Assembly (NCBI GenBank): GCA_963737635.1
Contig: CAVTTL010000001.1
Span: 800,001 to 864,000 of the forward strand
DNA length: 64,000 nucleotides
Reading direction: 5' to 3'
From: an uncultured Methanoregulaceae archaeon
GTDB lineage: Archaea > Halobacteriota > Methanomicrobia > Methanomicrobiales > Methanospirillaceae
Numbering within the stretch: the first letter of the stretch is position 1; every line of letters begins with the position of its first letter. Below are positions 3,318 through 26,725 of the stretch, piece after piece. The notes below the pieces were generated by a model that was given only the letters and a program-made list of their open reading frames with translations, was not told the DNA's origin and ran no database searches. A program made the translations under genes and the position numbers.

Positions 3318-3869
3318 TCATGCACTCTGTACGAAATGATGGCAGGTCGGGCAGACCCAACCAACCGGTATCATCTCCCCGTTTTTTGTCGTAGAAAATG
3401 TCTGGATCATCGGAGTATTGCACGAACAGATCGGCCTGTTTGCTGCTGCCTGTCGCTCCATAAACTGGGCGATCCTGCGCTTCTTGTATAGTGCACTTTC
3501 AATGGCGGCAAAGAGCTCCCGGGTATTGATCGGCTTGACCAGGTACCCACTCGACTCAGTCAGGACAACACGACGGATGGTTTCGTCATCGCTGTACGCA
3601 GTGAGGAAAATAATCGGCGTCCCGTACAGTCCTTTAATTTTATGGGCAGCTTCTATCCCGTCCATATCTCCCTGAAGATGGATGTCCATAAGGATCACGT
3701 CCGGGTGCCGTTCTCCGGTAAGGGAAAGCGCTTCCTCGCCGCTCATGGCAATCCCGACTGCTGAGTACCCGATCCGTTTGAGGGTCTCCTCAAGGGTCAT
3801 GGCAACAAGCCCCTCATCTTCCACGATCAGGATTCTTTTTTCCTCAGGGTTTGCAGGACTTTTCATCAT
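3318..3869 (-). CDS. response regulator receiver protein with C-terminal CxC...CxxC putative zinc ribbon
   Basis: 'ILIVEDE', 'PDVILMDIHL.GDMDG', 'IIFLTAY', 'YLVKP' receiver motifs; tail 'CSC...CPTC'. Confidence 0.9.
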   Translation of the reverse strand: MMKSPANPEEKRILIVEDEGLVAMTLEETLKRIGYSAVGIAMSGEEALSLTGERHPDVILMDIHLQGDMDGIEAAHKIKGLYGTPIIFLTAYSDDETIRRVVLTESSGYLVKPINTRELFAAIESALYKKRRIAQFMERQAAANRPICSCNTPMIQTFSTTKNGEMIPVGWVCPTCHHFVQSA

Positions 3870-3965
3870 GATTTCGCTGATATTGTTGGGTTAGTGACCT
3901 ATATTTTAGTTGCCTTTAATAGAGAGAAAGTTTAAAATATAGTTTATCAGAGAGGCAGCCAGTCG

Positions 3966-5378
3966 ATGAGTGATCAGACCCCTCGGTACTCCTTAATAGT
4001 GGGTGCGGGCAATCCATTTGCGCAGATCCCGGAGGACCCTGGGATCATGCGTTTACTGATCGTCATCATTGCTACCGCTACTATTGGCATAGCCGTTTTC
4101 AGCCTGGTACATGGGATAGCAGATCTTTACCAGTACCTCTTTCTTCTGCCGATAGTCATGACGGCCTATTTCTTTCCCCGGTACGGAATTGCCACATCCG
4201 TGATCATGGGACTCTCCCTGGTTTTACTCAACATTTTGTTTGTGGGTGAAAATCTGCCCGCACTCACGCTTGCGTGCTTCACGTTCGCTGTCTTTTTGGG
4301 GATAGGCGGAATCGTCACAATACTATCAGAGAGTATATCCGGATTAAAAGAACGATACCAGGATATATTTGCCATGTCCGGGGCGGGCATGGTCATCTTT
4401 AATCGGGATACCGGCCGGATTTCTGAAGCCAATCCCAGTTTTCTGGCTCCTTTGGGCTATATGTCAATCGGTTTACCTGCCTTACGCGATCTTTTCGAAT
4501 ACCCGGAACAGTACCGTGATCTGGTTGATGAAATTATTGCAGGCGGAAGAATTACCGATCAGAAATGCATGTTAGTTACCTCCGCGGGAGCGTTGCGCCA
4601 GTTCCAGATTTCAGCACGTTCGTTCTTCGGCCCCTTCATCCTGTGTACGTTCATGGATGTCACCGAACGTAAACAGTATGAGGATACTCTGCGCCAGTCT
4701 CTGACAGAAAAAGAGATCCTGATTAAAGAAGTGCATCACCGGGTAAAGAACAATATGCAGATAATTATGAGCCTTCTTGAGCTCAATGCACTCAAGGCCG
4801 AAAACGAACGTGAACGATCCCAGTATGCAGAAATGCAAGGGAGAGTAATGACAATGGCGCTTATCCATGAAAAGCTCTATCAGTCCCCGGTCGCTGGTTC
4901 CATCAATGCGGAAGAATATTTCTCGGATCTCCTCAAAAATATTGTTTCTGCTTCCGCATCGCCCGGCATACGATGTGTTGTACAGGCACCGGGAATTTTC
5001 CTCGATATAGATAAGGCCATTCCCTGCGGTCTCATTATCAACGAGCTTGCCACAAATTCACTGAAATACGCATTTCGTGAAACGGCCGGATCAGAGATTC
5101 ATCTGACCCTGACTGCCGGCAGCGACGGTCTATGCACCCTAGAATTTTTTGACAACGGAAGGGGTCTTCCTCAGTCGTATGATTTTGCTGCGTCGGAAAC
5201 TCTAGGGATCAGGTTGATCCATATGCTTGTACGACAACTTAAAGGCGCTATCACTATAACAAACTATGATGGCACGCATTTCTGCATACAGTTTCCCCTG
5301 AATCTTCGTGAACAGGAACCGAAAACCTCTGTCGCGACCCGGATCCCGGAACAGACTACCATTTCCCGGTGGGCATAA
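3966..5378 (+). CDS. membrane sensor histidine kinase (PAS + HisKA_2-type + HATPase)
   Basis: About 4 N-terminal TMs, PAS-like segment, H-box 'KEVHHRVKNNMQII', 'LIINELATNSLKYAF', 'DNGRG', 'TLGIRLI'. Confidence 0.92.
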   Translation: MSDQTPRYSLIVGAGNPFAQIPEDPGIMRLLIVIIATATIGIAVFSLVHGIADLYQYLFLLPIVMTAYFFPRYGIATSVIMGLSLVLLNILFVGENLPALTLACFTFAVFLGIGGIVTILSESISGLKERYQDIFAMSGAGMVIFNRDTGRISEANPSFLAPLGYMSIGLPALRDLFEYPEQYRDLVDEIIAGGRITDQKCMLVTSAGALRQFQISARSFFGPFILCTFMDVTERKQYEDTLRQSLTEKEILIKEVHHRVKNNMQIIMSLLELNALKAENERERSQYAEMQGRVMTMALIHEKLYQSPVAGSINAEEYFSDLLKNIVSASASPGIRCVVQAPGIFLDIDKAIPCGLIINELATNSLKYAFRETAGSEIHLTLTAGSDGLCTLEFFDNGRGLPQSYDFAASETLGIRLIHMLVRQLKGAITITNYDGTHFCIQFPLNLREQEPKTSVATRIPEQTTISRWA

Positions 5379-5487
5379 CCATAATTTTTCTTCCCCGGGA
5401 TATGTAAATCCCAATATGACTATAGAGACTAAAGAAGAAATTATGATATGATCTCAAAAAAGAGTGTATAAACTCTAGGTTTGAGCG

Positions 5488-7269
5488 ATGAAAGTCCGCA
5501 CGCGTACCCGGTTAATTCTTGCTGCCTTGGCTTTTATTTTTTTGATTGTTCTTAGTTTCATCACCCAGTTTATAATCCTCGATTCATTTCGTACGATAGA
5601 AAAACAGCAGATGACGGCAAACGTCCAACGGGTTGTTGCAAATCTCAACGATCAGGAGAACACGGTAGCAGCCAGCTGCAAGGATTGGGCAGACCGCGAC
5701 GACACCTATAATTTTGCAGAAAGAGCCAATTCACCGGGGAATACCGGCACATTCAACCAGCCGCTCCTGCTCGGGACGCTTGATGTCGACTATCTTCTCA
5801 TATACAATACTTCGGGAGATCTGATATTTTCCGAAGGGGCCATAACAGACAACGGGACGTCGGAAGTCGTTCCCGCCCAACTTGAGAATATCATCAGCGA
5901 CAGTATTATTCCACCGGGTGTACCTGGCGGGGTATCGGGACGACACGGGGTCTCGTTCCTCAATGGCGAACCGGTTATTCTTGCCGGTTGTGCCATCCGG
6001 GGGAGTCAGACGGAGCCTTCAGAGGGCACACTGGTCATGGTGCGGGTTCTTAACAGCCAGAGAATGGCAGACATGGAAAGTGTTCTCCAGATTCCGGACT
6101 TTACCTTTGGACCCTCTTCCACGGGTTCCGGTGTCGGCGTATTCAGCACCACAGACATACAAAAAATGAAGAAAGGCGAAATTATCAGCCAGCCAGTCAA
6201 CGACAGCCAGATGGGAGGAACGGCAATGATCACGGGCATCGAGGATAAGCCAACCTTCCTGATGCTGCAGGTGTTCACGGATCGTACAGTCTATGGCGAA
6301 GTACAGTCATCGATCCTGATAGTTGCGGCTTCGATCATCATCCTGAGCGCCTTTTTTATCTTGGCGATCCAATTTTTACTACAACGGTTTGTCCTGGGGC
6401 CGCTCAGCTCCCTTGACAATGATATAAAAATCATCGGTGAATCCGGCGATCTTTCCCGTCGTATCCCGGCCAAAGGGGACGAGGAGATTGTATCTGTTTC
6501 CCAAGCCCTGAACCAGATGCTTTCCGATCTTGAAGAAAAAAGGGCTGAACTTTCCGCTGCCCGCAGTGAAGTTGCCCAGCGTAACCGTGAACTCGAGGAA
6601 CTTAACCGGAAGGCGAACCTGTACCTCGATATTTACCTCGATGTAATCACGTACGAAATACTCAATGCAATCATGGGACTGCGAGGGTACGCCGATTATC
6701 TCAATGAGACTGCCCAGGAAAATGAAAAGCAGTTCCTCAAAAAGATCGTCGATCTTGCCCAGAAGAGCAACAACGTGATCCGCAATATCGAAACAATAAG
6801 CCGCATTTATAAGATGCAGCCCGGTGTCGTTCCCATCAACCTTGAAAGTATCATAAAAAAGGAAATGGATGTCCGCCAGAATATCCATATTACTCTTGAA
6901 GGATGCGACCGTATAGTATGCGCTAATGATATGCTCGGCGTCGTTTTCGATAACCTGTTCTCAAATAGTCTCAAGTTCGGCGGCCCGAAAGTGTCCATCG
7001 ATGTTTCCGCCCGGGACGCCGGCGATGGGATGCTTGAAATATCGGTTGCTGACAATGGTCCGGGAATTTCCGATGAGATAAAACCGGGGATATTTGACCG
7101 GTTCGCCAAAGATACAAAAACCCGAAGCAGTTATGGCCTCGGGCTCCATATCGTCAAGATGCTGGTGGAAGGATATGGCGGCCGGGTATGGGCCGATGAT
7201 CGGGTCCTGAAAGATGCTTCGTCCGGTGTCACGATACGGTTTACGCTCCGCTTGGCCAAAATAACCTAA
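5488..7269 (+). CDS. CHASE4-HAMP histidine-kinase-like sensor (H-box His apparently replaced by Tyr)
   Basis: TM, CHASE4-like 'DWADRDDTYNF', TM, HAMP 'GDLSRRIP..GDEEI', HATPase 'VFDNLFSNSLKF', 'VADNGPGI', 'GLGLHIV'. Confidence 0.88.
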   Translation: MKVRTRTRLILAALAFIFLIVLSFITQFIILDSFRTIEKQQMTANVQRVVANLNDQENTVAASCKDWADRDDTYNFAERANSPGNTGTFNQPLLLGTLDVDYLLIYNTSGDLIFSEGAITDNGTSEVVPAQLENIISDSIIPPGVPGGVSGRHGVSFLNGEPVILAGCAIRGSQTEPSEGTLVMVRVLNSQRMADMESVLQIPDFTFGPSSTGSGVGVFSTTDIQKMKKGEIISQPVNDSQMGGTAMITGIEDKPTFLMLQVFTDRTVYGEVQSSILIVAASIIILSAFFILAIQFLLQRFVLGPLSSLDNDIKIIGESGDLSRRIPAKGDEEIVSVSQALNQMLSDLEEKRAELSAARSEVAQRNRELEELNRKANLYLDIYLDVITYEILNAIMGLRGYADYLNETAQENEKQFLKKIVDLAQKSNNVIRNIETISRIYKMQPGVVPINLESIIKKEMDVRQNIHITLEGCDRIVCANDMLGVVFDNLFSNSLKFGGPKVSIDVSARDAGDGMLEISVADNGPGISDEIKPGIFDRFAKDTKTRSSYGLGLHIVKMLVEGYGGRVWADDRVLKDASSGVTIRFTLRLAKIT

Positions 7270-13127: not shown

Positions 13128-13330
13128 AACACTTGCGTGCATAGAGCTAAATCAAAAAATCAAAAAAAATCGTATTCATGGATTTGAACGGAAAACGCCG
13201 ATCACAGGCTGAAACTTACTATTCTTTGAAAAAGGGAATCGTTCAACAGAATAATCTCTTGAGGTGAGATGTAGACATGGAAAAGGGAACTTTCGCCAGA
13301 CATTTGCTGCTCGCAGAGGTCTCATGAGGC

Positions 13331-13380
13331 CCCTATACCATATAGGGATCACTATATTGAAAAACCTTAAATATATATCC
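13331..13380 (+). promoter_or_regulatory. putative promoter of the pstS-pstC-pstA cluster with upstream palindrome
   Basis: Perfect inverted repeat CCCTATA-cca-TATAGGG (13331-13347) directly upstream of BRE/TATA-like GAAAAACC-TTAAATAT (about 13359-13374). Confidence 0.55.
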
Positions 13381-13540
13381 AAAACGCTAGAAATATATAG
13401 TCTAACGTTGATATTCTGATTGGTGAATTGACATCTGTGGGGGATGAATGAACTTCACCAGCAAGAACTCCGTGGCAAATCCCTTAATCTCTACAAATTT
13501 TTCAAAAATCCCATCCACGAACACCAAAGGTGAAACAGCA

Positions 13541-14672
13541 ATGTACGCAAACATGAAACACATGAACAATGATATGGCAGTCTCACCGATTGTCGCGACG
13601 CTCGTCCTTATCGTCGTCGCTGTCATCGGTGCTGTCGCAGTCGGTACCATTATGGGTACCTTCTCATCCGATGTATCGAAACAGGCATCCGCCTCACAGG
13701 CGTCGTCTGCATCACAGACCGAGATCCTCATCGCCGGTTCGACCACGCTCCTCCCGGCTGCAGCTCAACCTCCAGACCGACTACCAGAAGGCCAACCCCG
13801 GCTACCAGCTCAATGTCCAGGGTGGCGGCTCAGGCGCCGGTGTAGCCTCAGTAGCAGAGGGAATTGCTGATATCGGTGCAGCATCCTCGGCAAGCACAAT
13901 CACAACCGCGCAGACGGCAAACCCGAACGACCCGAACTACCAGAACCTCTACTACACTATGATCGGTGGCCGTGGCGTCGTATTCATCCAAGATGCTAGC
14001 AACAAGGCAGATCCGACCAATATGGTTGCTCCAGCCGACTTGTCAGCAGCATACCTTGACGCCAGCACCAACAGTGGCAAGACCACTGTAGCAGATGGCA
14101 ATATCACCTTCATCGGCACAACCATGGAACAGCGTGAAGCCGGTTCCGGAACCATGTCCACCGCATTCGGCTGGATTGGTGGCAACGCAAAGGGCAACAC
14201 CTCCACCGGTTTCAACAACCTCCAGACTCAGAATGGAAACGCAGCAATGCTCGCAGCAGTTCAGGCAGGAACAGCAACTGCACCACAGTTCGGCTTTGTT
14301 GACGCAGGATATGCGTTCACCGGCGGCGTAACCAGCAACACCACCGCATCAGGTATCACGGTTGTCGGTGTCGAAGACAGCACTGGCGTATACGTCCCGA
14401 CCCACGCCAACATCAAGGCAGCACTCAAGGACTGGGTTAAGGGCAGCGCTCAGGGAACAAACTACCCGCAGAAGCTTACCGGCGGTCTCTACTGGATCAC
14501 CAAAGCAACTGCACCTACCGCTTCATCCAACGGTATTATCACAACCCCGGGCACCAGCTCAGCAAGCTCAGTTGTCGGCAACCTGCTCAACTTCGCCAAG
14601 TCCCCTACTGAGGCAACCGCGTTCAACAACGCCGGTATGTACTCACTCTATGACTTCGCACCGACCAGCTGA
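13541..14672 (+). CDS. pstS: PstS-like phosphate-binding protein with archaeal type IV pilin (class III signal) N-terminus; one-base frameshift near 13760
   Basis: RBS AAGGTGA before ATG 13541; 'NDMA|VSPIVATLVLIVVAVIGAVAVG'; PstS motifs 'IAGSTT', 'NVQGGGSGAGV..V.EG.ADIG', 'REAGSGT'; followed by pstC and pstA. Confidence 0.88.
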
Positions 14673-14706: not shown

Positions 14707-15627
14707 ATGAACGAAAAACCCGATCTTCACGAAGTACTCTTTCTCTCCTGTTCCATGGTGACGGTCTTAAGTGTCATCGTGATCATCGGGTATATCCTGT
14801 TCGCCGCTGCCCCGGTTCTGGGACGTGAGGGGCTCGGTTTTGTCTTCGGATCGACGTGGGACTACACATCTCATCAGTTCGGCATTTGGCCATTTATCGT
14901 CGCAACCATGATGGTAACTATCGGCACCATTGTACTCGCTGTCCCACTGGGCCTTGCAACCGCGCTTTTCCTCTCGGAGTGGGCACCGCCATGGCTTGAC
15001 CAGGTGCTCAGCACCCTTATCGAACTGCTGGTGGGGATACCTTCGGTCGTGTACGGTATCTTCGGCTTTTTTGTCCTGCGGAGTTATTTCAGTGATTTCA
15101 TCAATCCGTTCATAGGAAATACACTCGGTTTTATTCCCTTATTCAAGTATGATAATAATAACGGGATTGGCTTCCCGCTGGCAGCTACAGTCCTCGCCGT
15201 CATGATCCTCCCAACCATCGTCGCTCTTTCCCGGGAAGCGATGCGGGGGGTACCCGACTGACTGCGGGAAGGTTCGACTGCACTTGGGGCAACACAGTGG
15301 GAGACCATCCGGCATCTTGTTCTCCCGGCATCCCTTTCCGGGATTATCACCGGCCTGATCCTGGGAATCATGCGCGCGATGGGGGAGACAATGGCAGTCG
15401 TGATGCTTGTAGGCAATATGGGCGCCACCCCAACATCTTTTTTCAATCTGGGTGAACCGATGACTGCCAAAATTCTCCTGGATATCGGGTATTACGTGGT
15501 CGATCCCGAAGGCCGGAGCGCGCTCTTTGCCATCGGTGCAGTCCTTATGGTCATGGAGATAGGGTTCGTGATCGCTATCCATCTCATTAGTGATCGGCTG
15601 AAAAAACAAATTGAAGGAACCACATGA
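14707..15627 (+). CDS. pstC: phosphate ABC transporter permease PstC (in-frame TGA at 15259-15261)
   Basis: 'IELLVGIPSVVYGIFG', 'VLAVMILPTI', EAA loop 'VPD*LREGSTALGATQWETI', 'RAMGETMAV'; both halves are in the same frame. Confidence 0.92.
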
Positions 15628-18347
15628 ATTTCCGTGCACTCAAAGGGACGATCATGATGGCGGTTTGCGGAGCGGCTGCGCTCTTTGCTGCAGGCATGCT
15701 CCTTTATATTCTCGTGGTGATCTTCCTCAAAGGGGTGGCATCCCTGAAGCCGCATTTTATTCTTTTTTCTGAGATCAACACCGGGATGGGGCTCGGAACT
15801 GGGATCGGGAACGCTATTGCAGGTACTATCCTTCTCGCAGTTACATCCACTATCATTGCAATTCCTTTCGGGGTTGGAACGGCGATCTATCTCCAGAAAT
15901 ACGCGTCCGACAACCAATTTACACGATTTTTGCGTCTGATGATCGAGGTTCTTTCAGGGACTCCATCGATCGTACTGGGGATATTCGGCGTCGCCATCCT
16001 TGTCATCTATCTCAAGCCCATTACCGGGGGAGAGTCACTTATGGCAGGAGCCATTGCACTTGGCATCCTGATCATCCCGGTGATCGAGCGTGCGACAGAA
16101 GACGCGATCACGCGCGTGCCCTGCGAACTGGAAGAAGGCAGCTATGCGCTCGGAGCAACAAAATGGCTAACGATCCGGGATATCGTCATTCCCTATGCTT
16201 TGTCAGGTATCATTGTCGGCGCCATCCTGGGATTTGGGAGGGCAGCAGAAGAGTCTGCGGTCGTTCTCTTGACCGCAGGGTATTCCCAGTACATGCCGCA
16301 ATTCAGGATCGCGCTCAACCCGAACTTCCTTCTCGGGATAAAGATTTATCCGCTCAATGATCTCGTCGGATCATTACCGGTATTTCTGTACACTTCCTAC
16401 GAAAATTCCAATGTCTTTCCCATATCTTCTATCTTCGCCGCCGGGTTTGTCCTTATCGTTATCGTACTGTTCATTAACCTCTCAGCAAAAGCCATCCTTT
16501 TCTATGCCACAGCAAAGACACAGGGGCACCAGAGCGGCATTTTATCACTGTGCGCATCTTTTTCCAGCCGGCTGCGTCGAAAGGATTCAATCGGAATAGA
16601 ACGATGTACTGATCCAGGAATAAAAGGGGAGGAACCGGTGTATGAATCCAAGCCTTTCGATCAACCGGAGCCACCAGCTATGACACAGTCCATGGTCTTC
16701 AGTAATGCTCCAATTGAACCCGTACAGGAAGGTCCCCAAGAACCATCTGCTGCGAAACAGTCTCCGGCCTTCAATCACTCTACAGCAGAACTCCTCCCGG
16801 TAGTCCCCCCCGAACGGAAGCTCCCTTCTCTAAAGAAAATCATCACGTCCATGACAGCGGGCATCAGGAAATGGTTCCAGAGCCTCAGGCAAAAGCCACC
16901 TGCACCAACTCGGCAAACCGATCCAGCCGTAAGTCCCGATAAGAAACCACAGGCCCGGTTTTCTCTCCGGGATTTCGGCCGGACATTTCTCCTGACGATT
17001 GCACCATTTGCCCTGATTTCAGGTACTGCTGCTTATTCTCACACTAGCACTGCCGACACTGAATCCCGTCGGATCAAATGGACTATCGGCTTTTGTCAAA
17101 GCTTTCATTTTTACCATCGTGTTGTGCGCCATCTGCGCGGTCATTTCCTTGTTTCTCATCCGGGGTACCGCCATGTTTCTCCTCAGGCGGAAAAAGAACC
17201 CTCTGCTGGGGAACCGGCCCGGTGTGTTTGTGGCCATCGCTCTTGGCATCTGCATACTACTCATCGGTGCCTTTATTTTTTCTGCCCATCTCTTCGTCCC
17301 TCCTGTATCTACAAATCCGGGGGGGCAAGTCAGCAGTATATCCGAGATCTCTGGTACGGTAAACACCCCGTTCTTCTCATTTAACCTTCAGTCAGGAGAT
17401 CTTCTCCAGCTGGAACAGATGAACAACCCGCTCTTCTCTTTTGGCCTGCAGGAAGGCAGTCTCCAGTTAAAGGTAATGAACCAGACTGTAAACACTATGA
17501 ACCTGAGCACGCCCGGGTACTGGCAGTACCCCAGCTGAGCAGCCCGGCTAGTACCTCCAGTCGTGACGCCCAGCTCGCAGCGCTCCTAGCGTCACAGAAT
17601 GGGGGGGGTGAAGGCAGCTCGCCGACACCTATGCCAACTACTGCCAGTGCGACTGTAACCCCGACACTGGCACCGGCAGCAACTCCCCCCACAAACCCGG
17701 CCGTCCCGGTTAAAAATGCGCTCGATATGGGCGAATCCTACTGGTATGGCGATAACAGCCGTCCGTGTCTCGCCACAGTCTATAACACAACAACCCTCCC
17801 GTTTTATTTCTATTGGGACATGGACTGGAACCGGTTTGTCCAAGTAGCACCTGTACAAACCGGAGATGTGTTCCTCGTTGTCTTCATCCGCATTGAGGAC
17901 ACAGGGACTATGAGAGCCATTGTCCCATCGGCAGACTCGTTCATCGTTAGCTATAACGGTCAGAACTACACTCATAACGTCTACTTCGACACATCCGTTC
18001 TCGATCAGAACGAGATCGATTATTACACGGCGAATTTCAATCTCCTGCCGTACCAGTGGATCCGGGAGATCGGGCAACAGAAGCGGGACTATGCATTCCT
18101 GACCGGCTATAACGTCTTTGGGCAGAACACTACCGTAATCTCCAATGTTAGCGCCGGTACGACCATCCCCCCGACGGGACCCGATACCAACGGTCAGGGC
18201 TATTTCATCACGCCCGGTCGTAGCAACGCCATAGACGGCTACCTGATCTACGAAGTCCCCGCCAGTGCTGCAACGGATCTCAAGGACACGTATGTCCAAG
18301 TCTCTTTCAACAGTTTCAGCCCGACCGCGTGGCGCCTGGGAAAATGA
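15624..18347 (+). CDS. pstA: phosphate ABC permease PstA with long C-terminal extension (Pro-rich linker, 3 extra TMs, extracellular Ig/DUF4352-like domain); apparent frameshifts near 17020 and 17515
   Basis: 'IEVLSGTPSIVLGIFG', 'LEEGSYALGATKW', 'GRAAEESA'; ATGA overlap with pstC; reading can be continued by frame switches through 17119..17538 into 17631..18347 ('FLVVFIRIEDTG...PGRSNAIDGYLIYEVP'). Confidence 0.8.
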
Positions 18348-18564: not shown

Positions 18565-20586
18565 ATGAAAATGAGAATCCCCCGCGTCAGGAAGCAGATT
18601 CGTATCCCACTTGTCATAGGAGCGATCCTCATCCTGCTCGCACTCGGGATGTATTTTCACATTCTGCCAAGTATCGGTAGTCTGGCGCATCTTTTCGAAC
18701 CCAAAATTGCCGTAAATCCGGTCCGATCGCTGTCGGATGAAGATGCCTCACTCAGCCCAGCTCTTGCGAAACCCCTTATCGCTGACATTCTCGCCTCACC
18801 CACATACCAGTCCAATCCGCTTTCCGTACAATTCTTCGATATGAGCCAAGGCAACCCGGATACCTGGCAGTGGGATTTCGGGGATAATACAAGCTCGACC
18901 CTCCAAAACCCGGTTCATACGTACACCAGCGCCGGGATCTATAATGCCACGCTGACCATTTCCCGGGCAGATGGCGCCCAGAGGACGATAAGCGCAAACG
19001 ATGTACTGGATACCCGGCAGGGCGCCGAAATTCCCGTGCTGATCGATACCCTCCGGGACGGAATCATAAAGAAAGGTTCATTTTTATCCCTTGTATCAAC
19101 AGACAATAACTCATCTGTTACCGTGAATGGTAAACAAACTCCGCTGCCTGCAGGATCGCTTGTAAAGATCCGGGCCGACTCGGACACCACCGGGACCCTG
19201 ACCCTTCGCAACAGCAACATCCTGAGCTGCAGTCTTGCTGATGCCACGCTTTTTGTGAACGGAGCCCAGGCAGCTACTGGCAGTTTCGGGAATTGTTTCA
19301 TTCCATCAATCCAGAGTTACCATACAAACCTGAGCTTCGCAATCGAACCAACAATCGGGGAAGTCCGCCAGATCCTTGTCAACGGCAGCAAAATCCTTGC
19401 CGGGCCGGACAACTCGTACATCGTCGTCTCTGATGATTCACAAAATCCCAGAGACGACCTGACCGCTGTTGCGCTTCCCGGATATTATGAAGGAAGTGCA
19501 TCCCGGTACTCCATTTCACCTGCCTTGATTGCCGGTTTCGACGCCACAACCCCCACCGAAGGTGATGCCCCGCTTAACGTATCATTTATAGACCGCTCAG
19601 CCGGCGCTCCGGATTCATGGTCATGGGATTTCGGTGACGGAATCACTTCCCAGAAACAGAATCCTGTTCACCTCTATGGATCCCCAGGCACCTATGATGT
19701 CACCCTGACTGTGAAAACCGCGGACCAGGTTGACACGGCCACCCTCCAGGACCCGATCATCGTCACACCGCCCCGGGTCGTTGCTAACTTTTCAGCACGA
19801 CCAATCACAGGTAGAGCGCCTCTGACCGTCAGGTTTACCGATCAATCCACCGGATTCCCGACATCATGGAACTGGACCTTCCAGGAAACGTCAAACAACC
19901 AGTCCTTCATGAACAATGGCACCACCGTTTATGACACTACAACTGACCAGAATCCTCTAGAAACCTTCACTGATCCTGGCATCTATGATGTCTGGCTTAC
20001 GGTCAACAACATCTATGGCAGCAGCGATTTGATCAAGCCCGGGTACATCGTCGTCACCGAGCCTTACAACATTACCATCAACGATATTCTGATCAGGACC
20101 GGAAAACCCGGGGATCTCGAAGCGAATTCAAGCGTACAATTTATCGTCAGTAATACACCTGCAGCCATAACGATCAATGGCACGTACTATCAGCTGCCCA
20201 AAGGCGCAATCGTCCAGATCGTGGCAAACAGCGACCAGCAGGGCGACATTACTATCGACAGCAACAGGATCCTCAAATTTGATTTCCCGGATATGAATGT
20301 CTACGTGAACGGCGATCTGCTGGATACCGGCAGTATCGATAGCATCTATGTTCCCTATATGGCGCAGTTCCAGACTGGCCTTACTTATTACTTCTCGCCA
20401 AATTCCGCCCAGACATTCGAGACCATTAATGGTCAGCAGTACCTCGCTGATCTGGACAATGCCTGGATCAGGATCTACAACCTCGGCATCAACGAACAGG
20501 GCACGCTCTCCCTGATCTCGGGGGTAAACTCAACCTACCTCGAAGGAGCAGACAACCAGACGGTCCAGGACTGGATCCTCCAGTGA
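18565..20586 (+). CDS. membrane-anchored PKD-domain surface protein with two copies of an unknown beta domain
   Basis: N-terminal TM; three PKD repeats ('WQWDFGD..S..QNPVHTY', 'WSWDFGDG', 'WNWTF..QNP'). Confidence 0.88.
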   Translation: MKMRIPRVRKQIRIPLVIGAILILLALGMYFHILPSIGSLAHLFEPKIAVNPVRSLSDEDASLSPALAKPLIADILASPTYQSNPLSVQFFDMSQGNPDTWQWDFGDNTSSTLQNPVHTYTSAGIYNATLTISRADGAQRTISANDVLDTRQGAEIPVLIDTLRDGIIKKGSFLSLVSTDNNSSVTVNGKQTPLPAGSLVKIRADSDTTGTLTLRNSNILSCSLADATLFVNGAQAATGSFGNCFIPSIQSYHTNLSFAIEPTIGEVRQILVNGSKILAGPDNSYIVVSDDSQNPRDDLTAVALPGYYEGSASRYSISPALIAGFDATTPTEGDAPLNVSFIDRSAGAPDSWSWDFGDGITSQKQNPVHLYGSPGTYDVTLTVKTADQVDTATLQDPIIVTPPRVVANFSARPITGRAPLTVRFTDQSTGFPTSWNWTFQETSNNQSFMNNGTTVYDTTTDQNPLETFTDPGIYDVWLTVNNIYGSSDLIKPGYIVVTEPYNITINDILIRTGKPGDLEANSSVQFIVSNTPAAITINGTYYQLPKGAIVQIVANSDQQGDITIDSNRILKFDFPDMNVYVNGDLLDTGSIDSIYVPYMAQFQTGLTYYFSPNSAQTFETINGQQYLADLDNAWIRIYNLGINEQGTLSLISGVNSTYLEGADNQTVQDWILQ

Positions 20587-21984: not shown

Positions 21985-23296
21985 ATGTATAAACTGGGCG
22001 CTCTAGCATGTCTCTTCGTCGCGGTACTCGTTGGGGCATGCGGGTGCTCCGGCACAAGTCCCGGAGCAAACCAGACACCCGGATCCACCCCTACGCTCCC
22101 GGCAAACTATGTCGCCGGGGAAAGTACACCCTCTCTGTCAAGTGCTACGATAGCACCTACACCAACGCCTCCGAATGCGACAGCAAATATCTACGGGGCA
22201 CAGGTCAATACGACGCTGACGGAAGTGACGATCGCCTGCACGGGGCAATCATGTACCTATGGCATAGCTTCCAATACGACGCCAACTACCATTATGCCCC
22301 CCCTAACCGCTATTGCAGCAAATATATCCATGATATATACCAGGCAAAATCCGCTGCTGGTTGGCGTCCAGTTCACCGATAGTTCGGTAAACACCCCCCC
22401 ATACTCATGGATGTGGAGCTGGAAGCCAAGCGCGAACCTGAGTTCCGAGAGCGATCCCAGTATCGTCCTTGTGTTCAGCCAGTACGGGACATATCAGGTT
22501 ACCCGTACTGTTTCAAACACACTGGGGACTTCAAGTTCTTCAACAGATATCTCGGTCTGCCCGCTTGTAGCATCGTTTACCACGAACCAAACGAGCGGCC
22601 CAGTACCCCTCACCGTCAGGTTTGCCGATACATCGACCGATCAACCTGTCTCCTGGTCATGGAACTTTGGTGACGGGAGGTACGTCCACGCTCCAGAACC
22701 CGGTGCACACCTACACGACTTCAGGGACGTATACCGTGAGGCTGGATGCAACAAATTCCCTCGGCTCCTGCTGGAACACCACCGGGATCTCGGTCTCCTC
22801 ACTCTCTGCATCGTTTAGCGCAAACCAGACGAGCGGTTTGGCGCCCCTTGCCGTCCAGTTTACTGACTCTTCGACCGACCAGCCTACTAAGTGGTCCTGG
22901 GACTTCGGCGACGGGAGTATATCCAGTCTCCAGAACCCGGCACATACCTACACATCAGCAGGAGTGTATACGGTAAATCTTAAAGCCACCAACGGGTTTG
23001 ATGGGTGGATAAGTGCCACGCCCGATACGATCACGGCCTATTCCCTTCCCACCGTGGACTTTAAGGCAAGCCCATTAACGGGGCCGTCGGGAACATCGGT
23101 ACTCTTTAATGACCAGAGCACCGGATTTCCTGCACCCACGTCATTTTACTGGGACTTTGGAGATGGTTTCACCAGTACCTACCAGAATCCATCGCACCAG
23201 TATGCCAGTTCCGGCGCGTATACAATCAGTCATTCCGCAACAAATTCGCAAGGGACCGTGTGGTTGAACAGAACAGGGTATATCTCCATATCATGA
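21985..23296 (+). CDS. PKD-repeat lipoprotein (about 4 PKD domains), frameshift near 22675
   Basis: 'LVGACGC' lipobox, Thr/Pro linker, repeated 'W.WDFGDG..S.LQNP.HTY...G.YTV'; its TGA overlaps the ATG of the ATPase (ATGA 23293-23296). Confidence 0.85.
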
Positions 23297-25428
23297 CTTC
23301 CAGACCATTAACCGGCAGGATTTCATCTCTTTTCGGCACTAAAGAGCCTGACGGGACTGATACCGCTACAGAGCAATCTCCATTGGTCCTGACCGAAGAA
23401 GAACCCGTATCCGGGGAGTACGAGGTCAAAAAATCCGCGATATCACACTATCCTGACGGCAGGCACCGGGTTTCGCGCGTCCAGAAATTCATCCTGTACT
23501 TTATTGAGCCGGAACTGGAACCGCAAACCGGCGCCAAACCGCCAGTGCCTGCCACCGAACGTACACAGAAAACTCCTGCACCTCCGATAAAAGACCGGAT
23601 CCGGTTACAGCTGGCGTCCTTGCGATCGTCTCTCCTGAAAATAACCCTGTTTTTTGTCGAACCCGGATATGATAACGTGGAGATCCTCACGTTACCTGCG
23701 CCGCTAAAAGAGACCCTTAAAACTCACCTCCTCAAGCCGGAACCTACAGATAATACAATCCAGGCAGTAGTTGTACCGTCTGCACCCCCTTCTTTTGTGC
23801 AGAAGATCCGATCGGTGTTTGCATCACCGGAACAGAAGGATATCCAGACGCTCGATTTTGATCCCGGTGTTTTAGCTGATCCTTCCCTCGAGGGATCGCT
23901 GCGGGATGTCAATATCACGTACCAGATCGATCCTCCCTACCAGTACGTCCATATCGAGTACAGCAAAAAAGACGGGGCCCTTACCTATGAGGTGGTAGAA
24001 CCACAACTCTCCGAAGATGAGAAAATCGCTCTTGATATTATCGAGCGGGCTTTTGAGAAACTGGTGAGTACCAATCTTGAGGTTATCGAGGGAGAACGGC
24101 GGAGTGAATATCTCCGGGAACGGTTTTACTCCCTGGTCAATATATTCGGGCTCAAACTGACGGAATACCAGAAAGAGCGGATGTTTTTCACGCTCAAACG
24201 ACAGTATCTGGGGTACAGCCGGATCGATACCCTGATGAAGGACAAATATATCGAAGATATCAGCTGCAACGGATCCGACATCCTCCTGTACGTCCAGCAT
24301 CGTATCTACGGGTCGATCCGGACCAATGTGAGGTTCGGTGAAGTCGAACTCAACAACTTTGTCCTGAAACTTGCGCAGGTCGGCGGCAGGCATATCTCAC
24401 TGCTCCAGCCTATCCGCGATGTCTCGCTCCCGGACGGGAGCCGTGGAAACCTTACGCTGGGCGGCGAGGTCACCAGAAAAGGTTCGACGTTTACCATCCG
24501 TAAATTCCGAGCCAACCCAATCTCACCCATCGAGATGATGGATTACCATTCGGTCGATGCAATGGAGCTCGCGTACCTGTGGATCCTGATGGAATACAAG
24601 CGGTCAATCCTTGTCTCCGGGGGAACAGCGACCGGTAAGACTACGTTCCTCAACGTCCTCTGCAGTTTCATCCCTCCGGAGTACAAGATTGTCTCCATCG
24701 AAGACACCGCAGAACTTAACCTGATGCATCCCAACTGGATCCAGTCCATCACCCGGGCAGGATTTGGCAGCTCCAGTGGGGGAGAGAATGTATCCGGGGT
24801 GAGCGGCGTGTCCTCGAAAAGCCCGGGGGATATATCGCTCTACGATCTGCTTGTCGCAGCGCTGCGACAGCGACCTGAGTTCATCATCGTGGGTGAAGTG
24901 CGGGGCAGTGAAGCGTTTACCCTCTTCCAGGCAATTGCCGTCGGGCACGCAGCCCTTGGCACCATCCACGCCGGCTCCATGGACGAACTTCTTGCCCGTG
25001 TAGAGTCAAACCCCATGAACGTTCCCAGAAGCCTCTTTTCCAACCTCGATGTGGTACTCTTCCCTATGCATATCAAGAAAGGCGAGCGCAGCATGCGCCG
25101 GCTGGCAAATATCGTCGAAATGCTGGAGTCTGACCGGGACACGGGGGACCTTATCACCAATACCGTCTTCAAATGGGCCCCTGACATCGATGAGTTCCAG
25201 TTCCAGGGCCGCAGCTTCCTTTTTGACAAGATCCGGGACACCCACGGGGTAAATAAGGATATTCTCAACCAGGAACTCAAGGACCGGACGGCATTCCTTC
25301 TCGGCCTGCAGAGGGCAGGCGTACGGGAATACAACGCGGTGACCGAACAGATCCGGGCGTATTACCGGGACAAACCGGCGGTCATGAAGCAGATCCTTGC
25401 GGTTCAGGCAGAAGGACTAGAAGCGTAA
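23293..25428 (+). CDS. type II/IV secretion ATPase (PilB/TadA/ArlI-like) with long N-terminal extension
   Basis: 'IEDISCNG', 'STFTIRKF', Walker A 'SGGTATGKTT', 'VSIEDTAEL', 'ALRQRPEFIIVGEVRG', His box 'GHAALGTIHA'. Confidence 0.93.
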   Translation: MTSRPLTGRISSLFGTKEPDGTDTATEQSPLVLTEEEPVSGEYEVKKSAISHYPDGRHRVSRVQKFILYFIEPELEPQTGAKPPVPATERTQKTPAPPIKDRIRLQLASLRSSLLKITLFFVEPGYDNVEILTLPAPLKETLKTHLLKPEPTDNTIQAVVVPSAPPSFVQKIRSVFASPEQKDIQTLDFDPGVLADPSLEGSLRDVNITYQIDPPYQYVHIEYSKKDGALTYEVVEPQLSEDEKIALDIIERAFEKLVSTNLEVIEGERRSEYLRERFYSLVNIFGLKLTEYQKERMFFTLKRQYLGYSRIDTLMKDKYIEDISCNGSDILLYVQHRIYGSIRTNVRFGEVELNNFVLKLAQVGGRHISLLQPIRDVSLPDGSRGNLTLGGEVTRKGSTFTIRKFRANPISPIEMMDYHSVDAMELAYLWILMEYKRSILVSGGTATGKTTFLNVLCSFIPPEYKIVSIEDTAELNLMHPNWIQSITRAGFGSSSGGENVSGVSGVSSKSPGDISLYDLLVAALRQRPEFIIVGEVRGSEAFTLFQAIAVGHAALGTIHAGSMDELLARVESNPMNVPRSLFSNLDVVLFPMHIKKGERSMRRLANIVEMLESDRDTGDLITNTVFKWAPDIDEFQFQGRSFLFDKIRDTHGVNKDILNQELKDRTAFLLGLQRAGVREYNAVTEQIRAYYRDKPAVMKQILAVQAEGLEA

Positions 25429-25501: not shown

Positions 25502-26725
25502 TTATCTGCAGATATTGTTTGCAAAAGACCTGCTTCTCGTGAGTTGCCCGGAACTTATGGTTGCCGTCCCGTTACCACAGATCAGATAGGTAACATTTCC
25601 AAAGGCATCCGTTTGGCCATTGGAATTTGAAGGAACCAGTGTCCATGTGAAAGGTAAGTTATCTGCGTATTGATTGATGCTATAGGATACTGGTTGATCC
25701 GTTAGGGGAGTATTGCTTATGGCAGTTATGGTCACATTTAATTGATTGCCGGTCTGGTTCCAATCCAGATTAATGGACGATGGCGGGACAAACTGTTGAT
25801 CTTTTGGGATGAGTTGATAAGGAGAGGTTGCAACCATCCCATTGCTGTCGGTTACCGTCAAGTTGGCACAGAAGGGCCCACTTATAAATGGGGAGAAATG
25901 AGCTATTTCATTGCTGAAATAGGGAGGAACACTTACCGTACTTAGATCATTGACATCCGAACAGTTCCCGATTGGATCAATCTGACCGTTTGTCATAGTG
26001 TAGGTAGCATTCATGAGTGTCCATTTCCAGCTGACAATGGTCGCATTTCCTGATGAGGACTGTGACCCGTCCAGCACTATATTATCCCGCGGAACTGAGC
26101 CAAGCGTTGTTGTTTCAGTGTTATAGACAATCACAGGGGTCGGTAATTTGTAGGTCTGCTCAAAAATGTTCGTGAGCGAAGTTAAGACCTTGATATCAAT
26201 CTGGTCGCCGGTTCCAATAGGAGGTGCCGCGGGGGTCAGATCGATCGTGATTTTTGTACTTTTCCCTGCCGGAATTGCAAATTGTGACGAATTGACATAA
26301 GAACCAAGTGATGAGGAAGAATTACACCATCCTCCAGGTGATCCCAAGGCACTGCAATTCCCTGAAGAATAGGAGCCCGATAACGAAGAAAATGAAAAAG
26401 GAAGCAGATACTGGTTATTAATGGCGATGCCTACGATATTGGTATCCTGAGTGTTGAGATTCATCAGATCGAACGAGATGGAACTCCAGTTTTGTGGCGG
26501 GACGCCTATCTGGTTCCAGTAACTTTCATTATTGGTCAGACTCACCCCGGAGATCACAATATCCTCGTCATGGACTGCCTGCATCTGTGATTGCCGGGTC
26601 ATCTCGGCTTTCTGCATCTGCGAAACCATGAGCGCAAGAGCGGCTGCGGCGGTCACAGTTATCAGGATGAGAAGAAGGGTTCCGATAATAACAGAAACAC
26701 CCTTATCGTCACGCGGCCGGGTCAT
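25502..26725 (-). CDS. large archaeal type IV pilin-like protein with PKD/Ig-like domains
   Basis: Class III signal 'RDDKG|VSVIIGTLLLILITVTAAAALALMV'; PKD-like 'IVLDGSQS...SWKW...LTVTDSNG'; Ig-like C-terminus 'TDAFGNVTY'. Confidence 0.88.
   Translation of the reverse strand: MTRPRDDKGVSVIIGTLLLILITVTAAAALALMVSQMQKAEMTRQSQMQAVHDEDIVISGVSLTNNESYWNQIGVPPQNWSSISFDLMNLNTQDTNIVGIAINNQYLLPFSFSSLSGSYSSGNCSALGSPGGWCNSSSSLGSYVNSSQFAIPAGKSTKITIDLTPAAPPIGTGDQIDIKVLTSLTNIFEQTYKLPTPVIVYNTETTTLGSVPRDNIVLDGSQSSSGNATIVSWKWTLMNATYTMTNGQIDPIGNCSDVNDLSTVSVPPYFSNEIAHFSPFISGPFCANLTVTDSNGMVATSPYQLIPKDQQFVPPSSINLDWNQTGNQLNVTITAISNTPLTDQPVSYSINQYADNLPFTWTLVPSNSNGQTDAFGNVTYLICGNGTATISSGQLTRSRSFANNICR

Follow-up and report, generated by a model that had tools for sequence, protein, structure and literature searches.

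The second PstS of a Methanoregula species carries an archaeal pilin-type head, and its gene cluster suggests phosphate traps mounted on a pilus-like surface structure

The closest described relative of the system reported here is the bindosome of Sulfolobus, in which, as far as the cited accounts go, solute-binding proteins of ABC importers carry a pilin-type signal and a hydrophobic helix, and a PilB-type ATPase together with a PilC-type membrane protein is implicated in surface function (PMC3047682, PMC13705601, PMC3387779, PMC4371748). The idea that transporter receptors are placed on pilus-type machinery rests on the sugar-binding proteins of the Sulfolobales. A 2026 survey counted 4397 archaeal binding proteins with class III signals, in the Sulfolobales and several 'methanobacterial members', and proposed that such proteins functionalise type IV filament machineries; its text adds that they often lie near ABC transporters rather than filament clusters, and that a link to a specific locus needs validation (PMC13705601). 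Here we describe a gene at positions 13541-14672 of a 64,000-nucleotide stretch of contig CAVTTL010000001.1 from an uncultured Methanoregulaceae archaeon (the window; features lie on the forward strand unless stated otherwise). The gene is the second PstS of a Methanoregula species, and its cluster context suggests phosphate traps mounted on a pilus-like surface structure. The link from receptor to filament locus is encoded in the genome itself: receptor, two channel subunits, ATPase, platform and a second pilin-like protein share a conserved, partly overlapping operon. We assign a probability of about 0.6 to the reading that this is a phosphate version of the Sulfolobus bindosome, in which a pilin-headed PstS sits on a pilus-like or bindosome-like assembly and feeds PstC/PstA.

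It is nearly certain that the intact gene is a single one encoding a 376-aa protein. In the ORF listing of the window, the pilin-type N-terminus (13541-13645) is in the frame of ORF 13448..13870, and ORF 13569..14672, shifted by one frame, encodes the remainder of the PstS-like domain. An earlier note on this DNA had proposed that removal of one base near 13760 would join the two, and had pointed to reads and intact homologues as the place to look for a single ORF; short-read contigs and an intact homologue now agree on this point. Part of the stretch is contained in 17 public runs from 9 studies, and Logan contigs of four runs from four studies (X1, X2, X4 and X7) were aligned. The single X1 contig that bridges the site (757 nt, with no other differences) lacks base 13761, and so does the X2 contig, which comes from a different study and a variant strain with 15 substitutions; the X4 and X7 contigs do not span 13761, and the bridging evidence is that of X1 and X2. 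The extra base at 13761 that splits the ORF is an assembly error. Base 14671 is absent in two of the four runs, which turns the stop codon from TGA to TAA at the same position, and an indel pair at 15256/15261, seen in all four, eliminates an in-frame TGA of pstC. These four indel differences within 2 kb (13761, 14671, 15256 and 15261) mark the assembly of the window as noisy, and further ORFs that are split within it (e.g. 21985-23296 and 15624-18347) may likewise be artefacts. A homologue search with the domain alone found an intact 376-aa protein, P0002, which reads through the site, is 99% identical to the domain part of the window and agrees with its head at 70 of 73 residues; it served as the stand-in for the repaired window protein. 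A pseudogene or a programmed frameshift was considered and is ruled out by the short-read contigs without base 13761. The public gene call (P0001) is a truncated ORF of 333 aa because of the assembly indel, and automatic annotation in this way hides the pilin-headed PstS.

The protein begins with a 13-codon leader ending in D-M-A (13541-13579), with a predicted class III signal peptidase site after Ala13. This is followed by the mature hydrophobic helix, a VSP-initiated H-domain (13580-13666) that is near-invariant in the family, and by a linker rich in Ser, Ala and Gln (13667-13720), which by its composition and by a pLDDT below 50 at model residues 27-55 appears flexible, and which in the head ORF runs up to ILIAGSTT. 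The PilA-type N-terminus quoted in the earlier note is indeed present, and the head (window 13541-13759) scores 21.5 bits (E 1.2e-4; cut-off 20) on TIGR02537, the archaellin/type IV pilin N-terminal domain; the head of the orthologue in a related genome, G003, scores only 15.0 bits. Ala13 at position -1, followed by VSP and about 27 hydrophobic residues, agrees with the description of class III signals in a review as having G, A or S at -1 directly before the hydrophobic domain (PMC4371748). The head is also similar to subunits of solved archaeal type IV pili, namely those of Pyrobaculum calidifontis (8FK7, E 0.0031) and Haloferax volcanii (8FJ5, E 0.012), as well as to the Ignicoccus Iho670 core (3j1r, whose deposited chain begins VSP; E 0.24). 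Seven other pilin-like ORFs of the genome start with A/G and then VSP, and there is a single Peptidase_A24 gene in the genome (PF01478, 30 bits vs a cut-off of 26.5). Cleavage of the leader by prepilin peptidase is, on these grounds of sequence, the likely outcome. Outside the window, six small pilin-like ORFs with A/G-then-VSPV heads lie at C1:770.8-774.3 kb of the same genome (G000), near two other ATPase/platform sets (752-762 kb), and one more pilin-like ORF with an A/G-then-VSP start is found at C1:159 kb. The Peptidase_A24 gene (G000 C1:362.2 kb) precedes the canonical lipobox pstS-...-pstB operon (366.0-369.7 kb) by about 3.6 kb and is also near another ATPase/platform set (351-354 kb).

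The pairing of this head with a PstS-type domain is not peculiar to the window. The same A/G-then-VSP head and helix were present in 24 of the 26 homologues fetched by the domain-only search, the two head-less exceptions being the window's own truncated call and a frameshifted chimera. A search with the head (residues 1-60) gave 323 protein clusters; among the 120 matches listed, all those with a Pfam entry have PF12849 and four have none, and within these matches, in that length range, the head helix appears to pair only with PstS-like domains. In alignment A1, which comprises 28 family sequences, the A/G-then-VSP junction and about 29 residues are near-invariant while the domains drop to 37-46% identity. 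Each invariant head residue is encoded by 3-4 synonymous codons across 38 copies, which indicates selection on the protein, and the pattern is that of a pilin-type head under strong purifying selection.

The remainder of the protein is a predicted PstS-fold phosphate-binding domain (residues 61-376, positions 13721-14669), the continuity of which needs base 13761 to be dropped. The window ORF at 13569-14672 scores 31.0 bits on the Pfam family PF12849 (PBP_like_2), against a gathering score of 27, and the same family is precomputed for P0002. When compared with the PDB, the family profile matched 1twy with an E value of 1.5e-33, and further matches included 4gd5, 4q8r and the PstS of E. coli (about 1e-20), in a range extending to 1e-14. 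The AlphaFold model (mean pLDDT 87.1, pTM 0.81) shows a confident two-lobe domain from residue 61, with the N-terminal helix and linker at low confidence. Foldseek ranks 1-38 were all phosphate-binding proteins, the top hits with a probability of 1.00 and TM scores on the target of 0.55-0.82, and molybdate binders came next. Taken at the level of sequence and predicted fold, the window protein is a distant member of the PstS family. Its domain and that of L002, the canonical PstS of this genome with its lipobox, are about 24-26% identical, and in a domain-only maximum-likelihood tree the 36 pilin-headed proteins split from 10 lipobox or otherwise anchored PstS proteins with support of 96/91. 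Heads were trimmed for this tree, which left out L035 (no single ORF), L054 (mis-trimmed) and L060, L061, L006, L010 and L012 (motif anchor not found). When the window domain was compared with 31 relatives, only weak matches were obtained, because the clade is divergent. The central proposal of the earlier note, a PstS-type domain with an archaeal pilin-type head in place of a lipobox, is therefore borne out as one gene, and the canonical PstS of the genome does carry a lipobox (VAGC).

The motifs that the earlier note had listed for phosphate contact were all found, GSTT at 13736-13747, GGGSGAG at 13821-13841 and REAGSGT, its RExGSGT, at 14133-14153. In PBP-1 of Clostridium perfringens, nine ligands are described, namely Ser11, Thr12, Ser13, Ser41, Ser59, Arg125, Ser129, Gly130 and Thr131 (PMC5381212). 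By sequence alignment (A1 and the PDB profile) rather than by a docked ligand, these correspond to S67, T68, T69, S97, S115, R198, S202, G203 and T204 of P0002, so that all nine are kept with one conservative change of Ser to Thr, and the predicted phosphate-binding site is complete. It had been suggested that specificity could differ from that of canonical PstS, since the usual 'SSR' reads 'ASSA'. The data do not support this: Ser59 is the ligand of PBP-1 in that motif and the Arg that follows is not among the nine listed ligands (PMC5381212), the motif Ser is kept as S115, and the other eight ligands are kept as well. The canonical PstS of the genome is also without that Arg (SSN). The classical Asp of the low-barrier hydrogen bond is missing, as in PBP-1, and discrimination against arsenate may consequently be modest. 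N-x-S/T sequons are present, although there are only three in P0002, fewer than the 'several' noted earlier. In P0024, P0025 and P0034, as well as in loci L060 and L061, the invariant head is kept and the GST and R..SGT ligand motifs are lost; such binding-dead copies are sometimes near an intact one, as for P0018 and P0025, both of which list a longest contig of 83,496 nt.

The gene is followed by a pstC paralogue (14707-15627), which in a tblastn comparison is 50% identical to the intact PstC of G003 over 295 aa and whose in-frame TGA at 15259 is an assembly error, and by a pstA paralogue (about 15624-16530) that continues into a long C-terminal extension (15624-18347 in all, in three frames, probably owing to assembly indels). 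Because of these assembly breaks, the equivalog scores were taken from G003 and not from the window copies: its PstC passes TIGR02138 (273.7 vs 196.45), and the N-terminal part of its PstA orthologue, a single 910-aa ORF (P0050, L016 4783-7515), passes TIGR00974 (242.2 vs 193.45). The window PstC and PstA are 49-53% identical to these orthologues. No PstB is found in the window; the genome has one true PstB (408 bits), in the canonical operon about 450 kb away. Further downstream lies a dedicated type IV filament ATPase of the T2SSE family by Pfam, with a PilB3-like C-terminus (23260-25428), whose best NCBIfam matches both fall short of their cut-offs (FlaI with 377 bits vs 550, BasE with 193 bits vs 1000). 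The platform protein is split into two genes, a first half (509-1411; T2SSF, like the N-terminal half of ArlJ/TadC) and a second half (1418-2785; T2SSF with a C-terminal Ig-like domain, like the C-terminal half of ArlJ/TadC), and in compact operons their orthologues adjoin that of the ATPase. A second pilin-like protein, encoded on the reverse strand (25502-26725), has a head with K-G followed by VSV, conserved in alignment A3, and a large Ig/PKD-like body; it scores 30.4 bits on TIGR02537 and gives weak Pfam matches to Pilin_N and K319L-like PKD. There are five ATPase/platform sets in the genome, and only that of the window is not an adjacent pair.

A scan of 185,579 species genomes with the helix peptide yielded 37 loci, in which features were sought by tblastn in 10-kb flanks. 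They belong to Methanoregula, Methanolinea, Methanoculleus (including M. palmolei DSM 4273), Methanofollis, other Methanomicrobiaceae, Methanocella, Methanomethylovorans, Methanolobus and two Nitrososphaerota-labelled metagenome-assembled genomes (MAGs), and the related loci span the orders Methanomicrobiales, Methanocellales and Methanosarcinales. At least one orthologous filament gene was present in 33 of the 37 loci, the ATPase in 30, a platform gene in 25 and the second pilin-like gene in 14. PstC together with PstA was found in 27 loci, in none of which a PstB lies within 3 kb after PstA. True PstB genes occur elsewhere in the flanks of eight loci, each at least 4 kb from the pilin-headed pstS, and where the neighbours were seen (L034, L050, L057 and L059) the PstB stands beside a second pst gene set. 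Filament genes were lacking in the flanks of four loci: L037 ends 222 bases after the gene, L061 has filament genes 15-27 kb away on the same contig, and no filament gene was seen in the available sequence of L056 (3.8 kb downstream) or L032. The order is clearest in Methanomethylovorans L044 and Methanocella L042, which read pstS, pstC, pstA, ATPase, platform a, platform b, a gap and the pilin-like gene, with overlapping stop and start codons from pstC through platform b. The Methanoregula locus is stretched by inserted two-component genes, the 580-residue PstA extension and PKD proteins.

We also examined an even draw of 401 genomes of the phylum for the head (72-aa query, E at most 1e-8) and for the ATPase clade (E at most 1e-135). 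Each was found in 27 genomes; 23 had both, four the head alone, four the ATPase alone and 370 neither, counts to which no test statistic is attached, since related genomes do not count as independent samples. The two genes lie at most 10 kb apart on one contig in 22 of the 23 genomes that have both. Among 30 relatives, an ATPase above 46% identity was present only in G003 (77%), the one with a confirmed pilin-headed PstS. Receptor and ATPase are gained and lost together. These findings, as read from gene order and distribution, establish an operonic, co-inherited link of PstS to PstC/PstA and a dedicated filament machine without PstB, and functional coupling to that machine is very probable. 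The earlier note had spoken of a processed, possibly polymerising, anion-binding subunit of possibly altered specificity, and this interpretation holds in part: an ATPase, a split platform and a second pilin-like gene in the locus tie the protein to filament machinery far more firmly than that note could tell, processing and polymerisation stay at the level of proposal, and a change of specificity is not supported.

We therefore propose the following course of events. The precursor would be inserted by Sec, and the sole A24 prepilin peptidase would cut the 13-residue leader after Ala13, leaving the invariant VSP-initiated helix in the membrane. Lifted by the dedicated ATPase and platform, this helix would enter a short assembly resembling a pilus or a bindosome, of which the second pilin-like protein may also be part, and the linker-tethered PstS domain would be displayed at or beyond the S-layer. 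Captured phosphate would be passed to the cluster's own PstC/PstA channel, which keeps its ATPase-coupling loops and would be energised in trans by PstB from the canonical pst operon; the channel would have to borrow the canonical PstB, because the cluster has none. Polymerisation of the pilin-headed PstS is about as likely as not. A regular long filament of such bulky subunits is unlikely, and a short stalk, a role as tip or minor subunit, or a membrane-proximal array fits better. A complex prediction for the heads of PstS (residues 1-80) and of the second pilin-like protein (residues 1-90) gave a score of 0.01 against a mark of 0.32 and carries no weight either way.

Several observations weigh against this phosphate-bindosome reading. 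With 316 residues on a flexible linker, the domain is bulky for a subunit of a regular pilus. The window head scores 18.2 bits on Pfam PF07790 (Pilin_N), under the gathering score of 25.2. The residue at -2, which the earlier note had correctly given as an uncharged Met, is Met12, with Asp at -3, and a review describes a charged -2 residue as critical for archaeal prepilin peptidases (PMC4371748); most family members share the uncharged -2 with an acidic -3, and a charged -2 is also missing in four of the seven other pilin-like ORFs of the genome. On the PstS equivalog TIGR02136, P0002 scores 42.6 bits and the window fragment 26.2, below the cut-off of 206.6, compared with 246.9 bits for the canonical paralogue L002. 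Since the helix peptide was the seed with which the 37 loci were collected, the invariance of the helix among them is partly by construction, and the unbiased evidence is that of the domain-only search. The ATPase threshold in the co-occurrence count was picked after the paralogue scores (best 4e-127) had been seen, and the count draws on related genomes as non-independent samples.

The explanation that competes best, although an unlikely one, is that the helix is a mere membrane tether of an ordinary anchored PstS, cleaved or uncleaved, working for its PstC/PstA, and that the filament genes form an unrelated adhesion pilus that is co-inherited or co-regulated. The uncharged -2 residue would fit a tether, as would a long flexible linker with a large domain, and the filament genes of Methanoregula extend across about 25 kb, interrupted by two-component and PKD genes. 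A plain anchor, however, needs neither 13 invariant residues across three orders nor an invariant A/G-then-VSP junction. Furthermore, pstA overlaps the ATPase gene in compact operons, the patchy presence of the receptor coincides with that of the ATPase clade, and of the five ATPase/platform sets in the genome this one alone is not an adjacent pair.

Two other readings assign the protein a different role. It is improbable, more so than a tether, that the locus is an integrated uptake device in which the ATPase and split platform cycle PstS through the S-layer and back onto the PstB-less channel, as a type II secretion-like piston for import, with PstS-PstC-PstA exchanged as a cassette between otherwise conserved loci. 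That the binding domain has been recruited to a pilus as an adhesin or sensor, of phosphate minerals or phosphorylated surfaces for instance, and not as the receptor of a transporter, is a still weaker candidate: paralogues P0024, P0025, P0034, L060 and L061 have indeed lost the ligand motifs, and PKD/Ig-like surface proteins are present in the locus, but all nine ligand positions are kept in the window protein, 27 of the 37 loci have PstC and PstA beside the gene, and the G003 copies pass the equivalog cut-offs.

That the filament-type ATPase replaces PstB as energiser of PstC/PstA is very improbable. The ATPase gene does occupy the operon position of pstB in a cluster without PstB, yet platform genes for this ATPase are present, PstC and PstA keep their coupling loops and match the PstC/PstA equivalogs, and a true PstB exists elsewhere in the genome; we know of no precedent for a filament ATPase in this function. 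Least probable of all are two separate genes, a tiny pilin and a leaderless PstS, or a pseudogene, for which the frameshift in the raw window sequence and the truncated 333-aa call P0001 would speak, since both bridging short-read contigs lack base 13761, three further indel errors fall in the same 2 kb, and intact homologues exist, near-identical and distant.

The C-terminal extension of PstA (16530-18347) amounts to about 580 residues and comprises a disordered part, additional membrane segments and, at its C-terminus, a domain without Pfam match. It is followed by a PKD-domain surface protein (18565-20586; Pfam PKD_4), which is conserved in Methanoregula-type loci; both the extension and this protein are found only in such loci, labelled Methanoregulaceae. 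The part of the locus between the platform genes and pstS (3318-7269) encodes a response regulator along with two sensor kinases, one PAS/HisKA_2 and one CHASE4/HAMP; both kinases recur in L029, L043 and L064, and the response regulator in L029, L040, L043 and L064. The filament genes of the window are 77-91% identical to those of G003 (L016 and L040), with 77% for the ATPase and 91% and 86% for the platform halves, and the transporter genes are less similar, with about 30% for PstS, 49% for PstC and 53% for PstA. A second type of module recurs in L045, L050 and L053, and from these identities the PstS-PstC-PstA module looks exchanged or fast-evolving inside a conserved locus. In L052 and L059, the MAGs labelled Nitrososphaerales/Nitrososphaerota, a head-bearing PstS fragment is near an orthologous ATPase, which may reflect horizontal transfer or mis-binning.

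The region upstream of the gene was also conserved. A Shine-Dalgarno-like GGTGA (13529-13533) lies 7 nt before the ATG at 13541 and is conserved in alignment A2, which contains 12 Methanoregula-type upstream regions, as is an A/T-rich TATA-like box (13390-13400), a putative promoter. Just downstream of this box, 90-120 nt ahead of the start codon, is an invariant block of about 45 nt, the invariant columns of which include an imperfect palindrome (13421-13451), a candidate operator or 5′ leader element. The block is identical across Methanoregula-type loci whose PstS domains share 40-87% identity, and occurs only once in the genome. Of 64 loci, 16 carry its 17-nt core ahead of the gene, copies of the window or of G003 making up three of these 16. 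No Rfam family was found for it, as a search of 13300-13620 gave only a sub-threshold match to the HtrA thermometer (19.9 bits vs 52, E 0.23), and folding of the leader was not significant (z 0.58); an RNA structure for this block is accordingly not supported. The block may be an operator for a phosphate-responsive regulator.

The system described here bears on the scavenging of scarce phosphate by peat and soil methanogens, and it is testable, with cultivated carriers such as Methanoculleus palmolei DSM 4273 (L055) and Methanolacinia petrolearia DSM 11571 (P0045). The screen of the 2026 survey used the Szabo 2007 cleavage motif, and its main text, supplements aside, does not contain 'phosphate', 'PstS', 'Methanomicrobi', 'Methanocell' or 'permease' (PMC13705601). 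Our literature search, which did not extend to supplementary tables, found no publication that connects PstS to the bindosome or to class III signals. The Szabo motif reportedly needs a charged residue at -2, and the survey may for this reason have missed the pilin-headed PstS.

In comparison with known systems, the cluster shares with the canonical PstSCAB importer the PstS fold, the ligand set and the partners PstC and PstA, and the genome has such a copy too, with the lipobox PstS L002 and PstB. It differs from that importer in having a pilin-type head for a lipobox, a domain of only about 24-26% identity, no pstB in the cluster and a filament locus. With archaeal type IV pilins it shares the VSP-type mature N-terminus and a hydrophobic domain that is described as strictly conserved (PMC4371748), and the archaeal pilus structures matched by the head include 8fj5, 3j1r and 5kyh; whereas those pilins are small dedicated filament subunits, the helix here carries a linker and a 316-residue transporter receptor. 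The Sulfolobus bindosome, likewise marked by solute-binding proteins with a pilin-type signal, remains the nearest parallel; from it the present system departs in its ligand, which is predicted to be phosphate, and in its hosts, which are methanogens of three orders. The genes for the binding protein, two permeases and assembly are here in one locus, whereas the Sulfolobus binding proteins are described as encoded at transporter loci that lie apart from bas (PMC13705601). Neither the ATPase nor the platform is a Bas orthologue (192.6 bits on the BasE model vs 1000, and 26.8 on the BasF model vs 1300), the platform is split into two genes, and the cluster has no ABC ATPase. In place of the three small pilin-like proteins of the bindosome there is one large second pilin-like protein (350-470 aa), the only further pilin-like gene seen in the locus, where no search with the Bas (BasABC) pilin models was made. 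The bindosome concept itself is known, and the cluster described here would be a form of it for phosphate, in which the genes are linked in an operon, the platform is split and PstB is absent.

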